DNA of 42,718 nt from a virus. The notes under the pieces are model-generated. The model was not told the DNA's origin and did no database searches. It worked only from the letters and a program-made list of their open reading frames with translations. The position numbers and the translations under genes were made by a program. Numbering within the stretch: the first letter of the stretch is position 1; each line of letters opens with the position of its first letter. Below are positions 2,288 through 32,236 of the stretch, in pieces. The stretch is from UHGV virus genome UHGV-0332340. One strand, given 5' to 3'.

Positions 2288-2330
2288 GTATTTAAATGGG
2301 TAATTACCTTGTTTGATTAATTTAAAGGGC

Positions 2331-3026
2331 TTAGAATGCTCGTGAGAGACACAGCTTTTTAGAAAAATAGGTGTGTTCTTCACCGCTAATGGCTCCCACA
2401 TGAAATAACTCATTCAGTATCATCATTAGTACTTTCATACGATGTTCTTGATTATTAACATAGTCAAGAGAGGTCACATCTATGATTAATTTAGGGAAGC
2501 CTAAATCTTTATTCATCCAGTCTTGATAATTAGCATGATGGTTCCTAAAGTATTCATATAATTCAGTACCTTCTTCAACTTTCTCAAAATCTCTTGCTCG
2601 TTTATTAATGCGTTTAATTTCTTCATCAAAACTACAATTTAAAACAATCATCAAATCAGGTGATTTCTTTGGCAATGGTTCTAGTTCTTTCAACATGCGA
2701 TTCAACAGTTTAGTATAGACCTCCAATTCTAGCTTGTTCACAGAACCTTCATCGTATAACTGCTTTAAAAAGATTGAATCTTCATATATTGAACGATCAA
2801 GAATGCCATTTTTAACGCTCATAGCTTCCTGAATAAGTTCAAAGCGCTTAGACAACATGTCAATTTGAAATAGAAAACCATACTTTTTTTTATCTGCATA
2901 GAACTTCTCCAATAGATGATTTTCTTCAACTGGTTCATAAACTGCTTTAGTCTCCAGTAACTCACTTAATAATCTTGTCATTGAGGATTTACCTACCCCA
3001 ATTACTCCAGCTAATGTAATCAACAC
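2331..3026 (-). CDS. Deoxynucleoside kinase (dNK/dCK/dGK family)
   Basis: N-terminal P-loop LAGVIGVGKSS and a ~230-aa length typical of the dNK fold. The last 23 nt overlap the 35-bp direct repeat. Confidence 0.7.
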   Translation of the reverse strand: MLITLAGVIGVGKSSMTRLLSELLETKAVYEPVEENHLLEKFYADKKKYGFLFQIDMLSKRFELIQEAMSVKNGILDRSIYEDSIFLKQLYDEGSVNKLELEVYTKLLNRMLKELEPLPKKSPDLMIVLNCSFDEEIKRINKRARDFEKVEEGTELYEYFRNHHANYQDWMNKDLGFPKLIIDVTSLDYVNNQEHRMKVLMMILNELFHVGAISGEEHTYFSKKLCLSRAF

Positions 3027-3038
3027 TAATCTTCCTCC

Positions 3039-3260
3039 CTACTTGAATTCTTCCCATTTATTTGGTGCAAACCCCATACTCACAAATTCATCATCTTTAA
3101 ACACTACAGGTAGTGTTCGTAGGTTCATAGTAAGTAAGTCATTTAACCCATCTAGATTATCATCTACATTAACCTCAGTGAAGGTGTGTCCTTTGCCTTT
3201 AAACCAGTTCTTAGTCATCTTACAGGGCATACAATTGTTTTTAGTATAAATTTTAATCAT
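3039..3260 (-). CDS. nrdH: NrdH-like glutaredoxin/redoxin
   Basis: 73 aa, with a CMPC (CxxC) motif near the N-terminus and a thioredoxin-fold size. Adjacent to dNK (nucleotide metabolism). Confidence 0.6.
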   Translation of the reverse strand: MIKIYTKNNCMPCKMTKNWFKGKGHTFTEVNVDDNLDGLNDLLTMNLRTLPVVFKDDEFVSMGFAPNKWEEFK

Positions 3261-28064: not shown

Positions 28065-29261
28065 TTGAATCGTGAAGAGCAAATCAAAAAAGCACATGAT
28101 TTATTGTCAGAAGGCAAATTTGAGGAAGCACGTAGTTTAGTTGATGCAATTAAGAAACATGATGCAGAAGAGTTAGAACATAAAGCTTCTGAAGAACAGC
28201 CTGAAGAAGATAAAACTGTTGAAGAAACAAAAGATGAAGAAAAAGAAGAACCAAAAGAGCCAGAAACAGAAAAAGAACCTGAAGAACAACCAAAAGATGA
28301 AGAAAAACGCTCATTAGAGCAAGAAGGAGAAGAAGAAAATATGGAAAAAGTAGTGTTAGATGGAAAAGAAATCTCTCAGCCAGAAACAGAAGTTCGTGGA
28401 TTTTTAAATTATGTACGTTCTCACAACCCTAAAATGGACTTGCGAGCGCTTCCAGAAGGTGTTAAATCAACTGATGTAGGTGCTATTATTCCTCAAGATA
28501 TTGTTACAAAAACAAAAACATTGCCTGAAACAGTTGTAGATTTACGAAACCTAGTTCAAACAGTGAAAGTAAGCACTCCAACTGGTAAATACCCTATCTT
28601 GAAATCAACAGAGGCTGTAATGCACACTGTAGCTGAATTGGAAGCAAATCCAGACTTAGACAAACCACAATTTGAAAATGTATTGTATGATGTTGATACT
28701 TATCGTGGACAAATCCCAGTTTCTCGTGAATCTTTAGACGATTCAGATGAAGATTTGGGCGCTTTAATTGCACGTCATGTTCAACGCATTGCATTGAACA
28801 CAGCCAACTCTAAAATTGTTGAAAACTTGAAAACAGCAACAGCTAAAACTGTTCATAATTTGGATGAAATCAAAACAATCATCAATACTGAGTTTGACCC
28901 AGCATACAACTTACAATTTGTAGTGTCTCAATCGTTCTATAATGAAGTAGATTTAATGAAAGACAATGAAGGACGTTACATGTTACAACCTTCAATCACT
29001 GCTCAATCAGGTAAATCTTTACTTGGTTTGAACGTAACAGTTCTGTCTGATAAATTGCTAGGAGGTTCAGCAGGCGCTAAAGTAGCATTCTTGGGAGATC
29101 CAGCTGGATTTACATCATTCTTTGACCGTAACGAAATGGCAGTTCGTTGGCAAGAGCATCAACACTATGGAGAAATTCTAGCCGCAGCTATGCGTTTTGA
29201 CGTTAAAAAAGTAGACGCAGCAGCTGGTAAATTCTTAACTCTTGCGCCAGAGGTAAAGTAA
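28065..29261 (+). CDS. Major capsid protein (HK97 fold) with acidic N-terminal delta domain
   Basis: TTG start behind AAGGAG. A Glu/Lys/Pro-rich ~100-aa N-terminal region is followed by an HK97-like body. Confidence 0.75.
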   Translation: MNREEQIKKAHDLLSEGKFEEARSLVDAIKKHDAEELEHKASEEQPEEDKTVEETKDEEKEEPKEPETEKEPEEQPKDEEKRSLEQEGEEENMEKVVLDGKEISQPETEVRGFLNYVRSHNPKMDLRALPEGVKSTDVGAIIPQDIVTKTKTLPETVVDLRNLVQTVKVSTPTGKYPILKSTEAVMHTVAELEANPDLDKPQFENVLYDVDTYRGQIPVSRESLDDSDEDLGALIARHVQRIALNTANSKIVENLKTATAKTVHNLDEIKTIINTEFDPAYNLQFVVSQSFYNEVDLMKDNEGRYMLQPSITAQSGKSLLGLNVTVLSDKLLGGSAGAKVAFLGDPAGFTSFFDRNEMAVRWQEHQHYGEILAAAMRFDVKKVDAAAGKFLTLAPEVK

Positions 29262-29530
29262 CAGGCGTTACTGTAACACCTGAAACAGCAAGCGTAGAAG
29301 TGGATAACACAGTTGCTTTAACAGCGACTGTAGCCCCTTCTAATGCTACTGATAAAACGGTGACATTTAAGTCAGCAGATGAAACATTAGCTACAGTTGA
29401 CAATAAAGGTGTTGTAACTGGGGTTAAAGCTACTGAACCAGATACGCCAGTTGTTATTACAGTAACGACAAATGATGGAAATCAAACAGACACTTGTGCG
29501 GTAACAGTAACAAATCCAGCAGGTGGATAA
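29231..29530 (+). CDS. Ig-like (Big_2) domain in -1 frame of capsid gene 3' end (probable frameshift extension)
   Basis: The -1 frame opens at 29231, before the capsid stop at 29259-29261. It has no RBS. It encodes a Big_2-like fold (VTGVTVTPE...VTFKSADETLATVDNKGVVTGV). A potential slip occurs at A_AAG UAA (29255-29261). Confidence 0.45.
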   Translation: MLNSCARGKVTGVTVTPETASVEVDNTVALTATVAPSNATDKTVTFKSADETLATVDNKGVVTGVKATEPDTPVVITVTTNDGNQTDTCAVTVTNPAGG

Positions 29531-29596
29531 CACTAAGAGAGGTGGGGCTCATGTCTCAGCTCTCTTTTATTATATGATAAAGGAGCGATAGAGTCA

Positions 29597-31676: not shown

Positions 31677-32006
31677 ATGATTAAATTGAAATTAGAAATT
31701 GATGGGAAAACAAAAGAGTTTACACAAAAATCAGTCAAGGTGCGTGCCATGCGTGAAATGATGAAATTCCAAGCCCGTATGGAAAAGGTACAATCTGGAG
31801 AGGAAGAAATGTCAGCCTTAGACCAAATTGACACAATGATTATGTTAGTAGCTGATGTATTTGACAATCCAGAAGTAAACTTTGACAACATTATTAATGG
31901 TGTTGAAGCAGATAAGCTAGAAGAAGTACTTGGTGGCGTATTTGACGCTATTGGGGGTGGAGAAGCAACCCCATCAAAAAAGGTGAAAAAGACCTCTCAG
32001 AAATAA
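31677..32006 (+). CDS. Tail assembly chaperone G
   Basis: Acidic 109-aa protein upstream of the tape measure gene. Carries the slippery site. Confidence 0.7.
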   Translation: MIKLKLEIDGKTKEFTQKSVKVRAMREMMKFQARMEKVQSGEEEMSALDQIDTMIMLVADVFDNPEVNFDNIINGVEADKLEEVLGGVFDAIGGGEATPSKKVKKTSQK

Positions 32007-32236
32007 GTTGGGACGAACATCTTGACGCAATGGATAAGATGTACACTGACCTTTTATCCAGTGAGTCTGGGACATGGTCTCTATCAGAAATTAACAACGC
32101 TGACTATAATTTACTAATGGAGTTGTTTACAAAAGATAATAAACCTAAAAAAGAAAAACTACAAGACCCAATAGATTTCTTTGGTACATTTATGAGTCCG
32201 CAAGATATGGCAAAAGTAAAAGGTGAGACACTTTAG
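31677..32236 (+). CDS. Tail assembly chaperone G-T fusion via -1 programmed frameshift
   Basis: Canonical slippery heptamer A_AAA_AAG at 31976-31982. The -1 frame continues through the 32030-32236 ORF to just before the tape measure gene. Confidence 0.65.

Follow-up and report, generated by a model that had tools for sequence, protein, structure and literature searches.

Ribosomal frameshifting that adds immunoglobulin (Ig)-like extensions to phage proteins is described, in the sections of PMC5009743 that deal with it, for T3 10B, A2 gp5B, the Listeria phages A118 and A500 (both -1) and PSA (+1); the same sections cite -1 shifting at A_AAG in Bacillus subtilis cdd (A_CGA_AAG) and IS1222 (G_CGA_AAG). 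Here we analysed the 3' end of the major capsid protein gene in UHGV virus genome UHGV-0332340, a stretch of 42,718 nucleotides (nt) that we call the window and whose numbering is used for all coordinates unless a compared locus is named (L-numbers are our labels for these loci). An open reading frame (orf) encoding an Ig-like domain of the Big_2 family overlaps the end of this capsid gene in the -1 frame. On the evidence of the sequence and of a structural model, we consider it probable (about 80%) that the domain is expressed as a -1 frameshift extension of the capsid protein, with the shift at 29255-58. The region matches lytic Enterococcus faecium siphophages, with 96.6% identity to vb_GEC_Ef_S_9 and 91.7% to vB_Efm10_KEN22; in IME-EFm1/5, dArtagnan, Aramis, and others, the match is restricted to the capsid gene.

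Several described systems resemble this locus. Lactobacillus casei phage A2, with its gp5A and gp5B, is likewise a siphophage of a lactic acid bacterium with a -1 shift near the 3' end of a head gene (Garcia et al., 2004, as cited in PMC5009743), and the account in PMC5009743 gives it two capsid species, the longer one with an Ig-like C-terminal extension; the corresponding pair in the window is predicted from sequence. The long form of A2 is essential according to the same account, whereas close relatives of the window lack the module altogether. The two shift sites differ as well. The A2 site is reportedly the canonical heptamer C_CCA_AAA followed by a downstream stem-loop, whereas the window has a hexanucleotide-type site, G_GUA_AAG, that abuts the stop codon and is accompanied by no significant structure. 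The Listeria phages A118 and A500 (-1) and PSA (+1) are also Firmicute siphophages with recoding at the extreme 3' end of structural genes (Zimmer, 2003; Dorscht, 2009; both as cited in PMC5009743), and the stop codon beside the shift codon is treated there as a stimulator (CCC_UGA in tsh). However, the stop-adjacent cases in Listeria phages are +1 shifts on a Pro codon, and the shift proposed here is -1 on a Lys codon. The cdd and IS1222 sites share with the window a single tRNA-Lys slip from AAG to AAA, imperfect P-site re-pairing, and a Firmicute context (PMC5009743), but their 5' codon is CGA, which is read by inosine, and the cdd shift is considered incidental; in the window, the 5' codon is GUA (GCA in some relatives) and a stop follows. 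In T3, T7, and K1F, a -1 shift near the end of the capsid gene (10A/10B) yields a minor extended subunit, whose extension is Ig-like in T3 (PMC5009743, in the part on these phages), but these are podophages of Gram-negative hosts with another shift site. Finally, phi29 gp8, mycobacteriophage Douge gp8, and a metagenomic capsid (L042) combine an HK97-fold capsid with an outward-facing Big_2-type Ig domain at the C-terminus; unlike in the window, this domain is read in the capsid frame and is present on all subunits without recoding. Set beside these systems, the recoded capsid proposed here for E. faecium phages is a so far unannotated case of documented Ig-extension frameshifting.

In the proposed mechanism, most ribosomes would terminate at the UAA at 29259-61 and release the ordinary 398-residue capsid protein. 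A minority would shift to the -1 frame at G_GUA_AAG_UAA, with tRNA-Lys moving from AAG (29256-58) to AAA (29255-57), a slip that is probably assisted by the adjacent stop and by poor decoding of AAG. The shifted ribosomes would then read GUA ACA GGC..., adding the 90-residue Big_2 domain without a linker to give a 488-residue precursor with the junction ...APEVK-VTGVTVTPE.... Slippage with AAG in the A site and slippage with AAG in the P site over the stop both yield ...APEVK-VTGV.... The predicted junction peptide is ...EVKVTGVTVTPETASVEVDNTVALTATVAPSNATDK, and the predicted tryptic junction peptide is VTGVTVTPETASVEVDNTVALTATVAPSNATDK, preceded by ...FLTLAPEVK. Plain and extended capsid proteins would co-assemble into heads carrying sub-stoichiometric, outward-facing Ig domains, which would most plausibly serve as weak carbohydrate or cell-surface adhesins. 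The occurrence and efficiency of slippage, the co-assembly, and the function of the Ig domain are what we infer from the observations below.

The capsid protein matches Pfam Phage_capsid (PF05065) with an E value of 1.9e-28 over residues 139-392 of 398. Relatives label the gene as capsid or major head protein and have the order portal, protease, capsid, connector; as in the class of frameshift-generated Ig-like extensions (Fraser et al., 2006), the upstream orf encodes a major virion structural protein, here an HK97-type major capsid protein. Its stop codon, TAA at 29259-61, ends the zero frame of the proposed recoding event. The -1 frame has a TAA at 29228-30, is open over 99 sense codons (29231-29527), and ends with a TAA at 29528-30, so that it opens 28 nt ahead of the capsid stop, exactly as the initial annotation of this DNA described it (29231-29530). 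The junction reads CCA GAG GTA AAG TAA, with A_AAG_TAA at 29255-29261.

Translation of the -1 frame (ILNSCARGKVTGVTVTPETASVEV...) gives a match to Pfam Big_2 (PF02368) with an E value of 1e-15 and a score of 57.9 bits against a gathering cut-off of 22.8; residues 10-91 span positions 2-79 of the 79-position profile. The domain begins with the Val codon at 29258-60, one codon past the -1-frame AAA (29255-57), and the capsid and Big_2 domains are therefore both complete, one following the other with no linker in between. When aligned with the fusion, solved Big_2 domains (bglH and the lambda gpV C-terminal domain) match from residue 393-399 onward. We modelled the segment K398-G488 with AlphaFold using a 27-sequence alignment, which gave a mean predicted local distance difference test score (pLDDT) of 96 and a predicted template modelling score (pTM) of 0.84; a single-sequence run (pLDDT 47) was set aside in favour of the alignment-based one. 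The model has β-strands at residues 4-8 and 11-16. Its Foldseek matches, with their template modelling scores, were the Big_2 domain of bglH (0.85-0.89), the C-terminal domain of lambda gpV (0.86), and the Ig domain at the C-terminus of phi29 capsid gp8 (0.75). The above-threshold profile match together with an Ig-like β-sandwich fold in the model place the domain in Big_2, and the Ig-like identity given in the initial annotation is borne out over the full profile. The earliest start codon (ATG, GTG, or TTG) in this frame, GTG at 29300, lies 14 codons past the start of the domain and corresponds to residue 16 of the modelled segment, with two modelled strands at or before it. As judged from the model, the Ig fold would be complete only when translation comes in from the capsid frame. 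As in the Ig-extension class, the domain is thus encoded out of frame across the 3' end of a structural gene and would be incomplete from any internal start.

The initial annotation had suggested looking for the same arrangement in relatives. Isolates, IMG/VR, metagenomes, and Logan assemblies together yielded 32 loci that carry the Big_2 module, 20 of them distinct, and all have the same capsid/Ig junction; because these loci were assembled independently, the junction is not an assembly artefact. In four relatives (L001, L023, L057, and L058), a TGA within CTTGAG or CTTGAA interrupts the -1 frame, and both frames are consequently open only over CCA GNG GYA AAG (window 29247-29258). These stops also exclude T_AAA_TTC at 29228-34, which was considered as a shift site. 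Within the last four capsid codons, A_AAG (29255-58) is the only sequence that permits re-pairing in the -1 frame, and it is the minimal Z_ZZN motif. AAAG is invariant in 20/20 distinct Big_2-carrying sequences, while the three codons ahead of it vary at the protein level (T/A/E/K/D, P/S, E/A, and V/A), including a change of GTA to GCA directly before AAG in L054 and L055. The stop adjoins AAG in 19/20; in L057, it follows one codon later (AAG TTA TAG), and A_AAG is kept.

Codon usage sets the site apart as well. The capsid gene has 33 AAA and two AAG Lys codons, and its terminal codon is the sole in-frame A_AAG. In the 20 long orfs on the plus strand of the window, A precedes 21/129 AAG codons, versus 39% expected from third-position composition (p = 5e-8), and 32% of AAA codons (odds ratio of AAG versus AAA 0.42, p = 8e-4). 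Such avoidance of A_AAG is what is expected if A_AAG is shift-prone in the host. Elsewhere in the window, the two orfs for tail-assembly chaperones (31677-32006 and 32030-32236) are connected in the -1 frame by a canonical A_AAA_AAG at 31976-31982; from there, this frame is open into the downstream 68-residue chaperone orf, and a second G_AAA_AAG lies at 31985-91. Slip sites ending in AAG are therefore in use in the same phage. The depletion of A_AAG and this chaperone site would also be in keeping, as indirect support, with a host whose only tRNA-Lys (anticodon UUU) reads both AAA and AAG.

The Ig domain has its nearest homologues (72-83% identity) in tandem Big_2 orfs, as the second of the two domains, and the linker between these domains reads ...NPVVKVTGV.... 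At the DNA level, the linker of L071 is AAT CCA GTT GTT AAA GTA ACT GGA, and the window aligns to it as GCG CCA GAG GTA AA- GTA ACA GGC. Up to the Lys codon, homology thus follows the zero frame of the capsid (P E V K); beyond it, homology follows the -1 frame, with one A missing from the Lys codon at the switch. To judge from this alignment, the simplest history would be an in-frame capsid::linker::Big_2 fusion from whose linker Lys codon one A was deleted. A single A deletion of this kind, from GTA AAA GTA to GTA AAG TAA, would have made the stop codon and the slippery site together.

Other lineages also link capsid or tail proteins to Ig domains. A group of metagenomic loci (L068-L071, e.g., ERR2241755_24547) encodes another HK97-type capsid protein, 24.5% identical to that of the window, in the order portal, S78 protease, capsid, and two Big_2 domains. 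The capsid gene ends (about 2405-2435) with GCA GGA AAA AAC GCG TAG and so carries a canonical A_AAA_AAC near its stop, and the -1 orf encodes two full Big_2 domains (E value 2.5e-32), the first starting approximately 4 residues after the heptamer and approximately 25 codons ahead of the first start codon, the second with 76% DNA identity to the Ig module of the window. Gene callers report for these loci an orf of 148-153 codons that begins inside the first Big_2 domain. From its sequence, this locus is probably another unannotated capsid frameshift. In L067 (IMGVR_UViG_3300045988_137243, 112 kb; 2288-3162), a tail-tube-like orf ends in C_CCA_AAG_UAA and is followed in the -1 frame by a Big_2 domain (PKVKVTGVTVTP...); C_CCA_AAG beside a stop is, by its sequence, a highly shift-prone heptamer.

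In-frame capsid::Big_2 proteins are found in the metagenomic locus L042 (549 residues, PF05065 and PF02368) and, in the PDB, in the capsids of phi29 and Douge, and a capsid/Big_2 fusion product is structurally plausible because such in-frame fusions exist. A HMMER library search with the 488-residue fusion was dominated by giant multi-Big_2 proteins; it returned one distant capsid protein (P0268) with an in-frame β-rich extension and no Big_2 match. A piece that is 93% DNA-identical to the Ig module is present at 2930-3250 of L004 (Enterococcus myophage vB_EfeBG-143, Kochikohdavirus, a 143-kb member of the Herelleviridae), where it lies behind a short signal-peptide-like orf and its 5' end is scrambled or duplicated (GTAGAAGTGGGTAACACAGATTGGTAACACAG). 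This similarity points to a recent horizontal transfer of the Ig module between unrelated Enterococcus phages.

The initial annotation proposed an A_AAG slip that fuses the Ig domain after ...APEVK, and the comparative stops, the conserved AAAG, the switch of the homologous frame, and the A_AAA_AAC lineage lend this proposal computational support. Its caution that the heptamer is not canonical was well placed. The site belongs, by its sequence, with the NNA_AAG hexanucleotide or "shifty stop" class rather than with X_XXY_YYZ, as it has an in-frame A_AAG with a slow stop codon directly 3' (GUA AAG UAA). At NNA_AAG sites, a tRNA-Lys that pairs better with AAA moves onto it from AAG, and the 5' codon acts mainly via third-base release (PMC5009743); a stop as the very next codon makes the classical "shifty stop" (Weiss et al., 1987, as cited in the corresponding section of PMC5009743). 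GUA and GCA are four-fold-box codons that would be read by wobble-proficient U34 tRNAs, which is consistent with such release.

Several observations nevertheless weigh against frameshifting at this site. G_GUA_AAG (G_GCA_AAG in L054/L055) does not fit the X_XXY_YYZ heptamer, P-site re-pairing amounts to 2/3 or 1/3, and tRNA-Val on GUA re-pairs poorly with GGU. Canonical tandem-slippage sites call for a stable stem-loop or pseudoknot, conserved or covarying, 5-9 nt downstream. No significant 3' structure is evident: a hairpin at 29262-82, beginning 3 nt after AAG, has 4+4 bp with a C/A mismatch and a 3-nt loop, and its folding energy (-7.5 kcal/mol, z = -1.1) was equalled or bettered by 31/200 shuffles. 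Among its variants, L023 breaks the closing pair and L057 makes a U-G pair, with no compensation. The upstream GAGG (29250-53) is GCGG in about 10% of relatives and too close for the spacing known to stimulate -1 shifts; as a Shine-Dalgarno-like stimulator it was rejected, being not conserved and spaced to fit +1 rather than -1. A stronger stem at 29309-31 was also rejected, as it lies approximately 50 nt downstream, too far to count as a stimulator. Because no RNA stimulator is convincing and GAGG is not conserved, we would expect a low efficiency. The Ig frame shows no more than a weak sign of purifying selection: the ratio of synonymous to non-synonymous changes is 19:31, versus 10:37 and 9:39 in the other frames, a trend in the expected direction that is not significant, and only 6 changes lie before the GTG. 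The module is dispensable, as many close relatives lack it, and the literature searched contained no report of capsid frameshifting in this E. faecium phage group. In one relative (L006/L036, IMGVR_UViG_3300018471_000070), a 1-nt insertion near window position ~29293 (GCGTTAGAA versus GCGTAGAA) cuts the -1 extension after 25 codons; either the module has decayed naturally there or the assembly is in error.

Some of these points would also be expected if the Ig orf were a decaying remnant, left when an in-frame fusion lost 1 nt, with slippage at A_AAG being incidental. The homology switches frame precisely as a 1-nt deletion would make it, the module is missing from many close relatives and interrupted in L006, the selection signal is weak, no stimulatory structure is significant, and A_AAG shifting in B. 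subtilis cdd is cited as incidental (PMC5009743). We consider this unlikely. The 90-codon frame is intact in 18/19 full-length distinct sequences despite 50 variable sites, and among the best-matching 120 capsid proteins, all of 393-408 residues, none has restored the frame or lost the orf. Moreover, the product of the deletion is a known shift-prone motif beside a stop, using a codon that is nearly absent from the gene, and the second lineage keeps its domains out of frame with a canonical heptamer.

A separate small gene starting at GTG 29300 or later, whose free 76-residue product would decorate the capsid non-covalently, is how database records present the orf. The vb_GEC_Ef_S_9 record has a 76-residue "Ig domain-containing protein" called from GTG 29300, the KEN22 record has a 56-residue coding sequence from a later GTG, and gene callers on metagenomic contigs likewise predict a separate Ig coding sequence. 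However, GTG 29300 is replaced by GTT in 4/20 distinct relatives, which is why the KEN22 annotators had to choose the shorter version, and GGAG, GAGG, and AGGA are absent from the 20 nt upstream of GTG 29300 in the window, in line with the initial annotation, which saw no Shine-Dalgarno sequence or plausible independent start. A product begun there would also be without the first 15 residues, which include two confidently modelled strands, and without profile positions 2 to ~15, whereas homologous domains of other proteins align from the Val at 29258, ahead of the GTG. With two strands missing, the GTG not conserved, and no Shine-Dalgarno sequence, independent initiation is therefore very unlikely.

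Transcriptional slippage is associated with runs much longer than three As. A non-ribosomal frame change, by sequencing or assembly error or by RNA polymerase slippage, is scarcely credible here even though the proposed shift falls within a short stretch of As (GTAAAG), since the identical junction occurs in isolate genomes and in the 32 independent assemblies, from different samples and platforms, and since the run of three As is far short of slippage lengths (long A/T runs are discussed in this connection in PMC5009743).

Frameshift expression of the capsid extension remains our preferred reading, and the features of the region are collected in Table 1. The Ig module lies within the capsid transcription unit, because the terminator element behind the Ig stop is the same one that relatives without the module carry directly behind the capsid stop. 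In IME-EFm1-type relatives, for example, the capsid ends with ...DTTVVAGE directly ahead of this terminator.

Table 1. Features of the capsid region in the 42,718-nt window
Feature	Position	Strand	Basis or remark
Portal	26294-27499		gene order around capsid
S78 prohead protease	27438-27995		gene order around capsid
Major capsid protein gene, 398 residues, HK97-type	28065..29261	+	orf list; PF05065; annotation of relatives
Two-frame overlap (0 and -1 both open)	29231..29258	+	shift must fall here
Proposed recoding site G_GUA_AAG_UAA	29252..29261	+	AAAG conservation; codon usage; motif class in PMC5009743
Predicted Big_2 Ig-like domain, 90 residues plus stop, -1 frame	29258..29530	+	Pfam; PDB matches; AlphaFold; Foldseek
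Small hairpin, candidate stimulator without support	29262..29282	+	folding energy; shuffles
GTG, earliest possible start in the Ig frame	29300..29302	+	rival start, judged unused
Terminator-like hairpin and T-run after the Ig stop	29543..29573	+	
Head-tail connector genes	from 29597		after the Ig orf

In GenBank records, the Ig orf appears as a separate "Ig domain protein" of 56-76 residues; we propose annotating it as part of the capsid gene, with recoding and a second, longer product. If this longer product is made, the displayed Ig-like adhesin domains could affect adsorption, mucus retention, immunogenicity, and host range. Two of these phages, dArtagnan and Aramis, were developed with a view to phage therapy and can be grown on vancomycin-resistant isolates. 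The A_AAG site would lend itself readily to low-copy capsid display, for which K1F gene 10B has already served. Within the phage group, four states can be distinguished: no extension, a Big_2 extension via A_AAG, a short extension via A_AAG or G_GGG, and IME-EFm5 without a recognisable slip site. This series suits the study of the role of the domain and of a structure-less, stop-adjacent A_AAG in a Firmicute.

The short extension is found in dArtagnan (L005, 2686-3004), L018, and L059, which have the same ...GGTAAAGTAAC junction and in which the -1 frame adds 22 residues (VTTPSNVATQDVTATGVTITAV, then a stop) resembling strands A-B of fibronectin type III (FN3) domains. It is followed by a strong terminator hairpin, a ribosome-binding site, and a 58-residue orf (MTRTFKVYNGEE...PEFTTLAE) whose match to Pfam fn3 is confined to the C-terminal half, which looks like strands C-G, and for which 16 protein clusters exist. 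The protein search returned no unsplit homologue of this orf, and with the 22-residue extension joined to it, the Pfam fn3 match still failed to reach strands A-B. Extension and orf could be a split domain that is completed in trans, or a broken remnant. The capsids of L027 and L056 end with DTAGE and DTAGK (GCG GGG GAG/AAG TAA), with a G_GGG slip site two codons before the stop that leads into the same -1 extension. In IME-EFm5 (L012, DTARE), the corresponding codons are GCG AGG GAG, and IME-EFm5 may not make the extension, because the overlap contains no recognisable slip site. The hairpin behind the short-extension site (L005 2696-2741; L027 2423-2468) starts 4 nt after AAG and has a folding energy of -16.8 kcal/mol (z = -3.85), with 0/200 shuffles as good; two A-to-G differences between dArtagnan and L027 keep G-U pairing. 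To go by these features, a frameshift stimulator may exist in the short-extension lineage, though none is evident in the window.

The same split layout occurs in the unrelated phage L040 (IMGVR_UViG_2814123160_000002; 1700-1830), where the major tail protein gene ends with ACA CCC TAA. This CCC_stop is the +1 site type of Listeria tsh, and the +1 frame adds KTPQTVEVAVDTNSAAISAQ before a stop. Next come a ribosome-binding site and a 172-residue orf that starts at an apparent FN3 strand C (MADTLNVYKG...) and continues into Big_2. A rather doubtful idea is that ...PEVK together with A_AAG_UAA is a portable, deletion-born cassette that would set a low ratio of decorated to plain subunits without RNA structure and could carry varied cargos, the short extension acting as a two-strand hook that recruits a free decoration protein by fold complementation. 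We know of no description of such anchoring for a phage decoration protein.

At the other end of the capsid gene, the first ~95 residues (window 28065-28350) are extremely rich in E, K, and P and of low complexity (EEQPEEDKTVEETKDEEKEEPKEPETEKEPEEQPKDEEK). The E/K-rich N-terminus is presumably a delta- or scaffold-like region that is removed by the S78 protease. The stretch differs in length between relatives, whose capsids have 393-408 residues.

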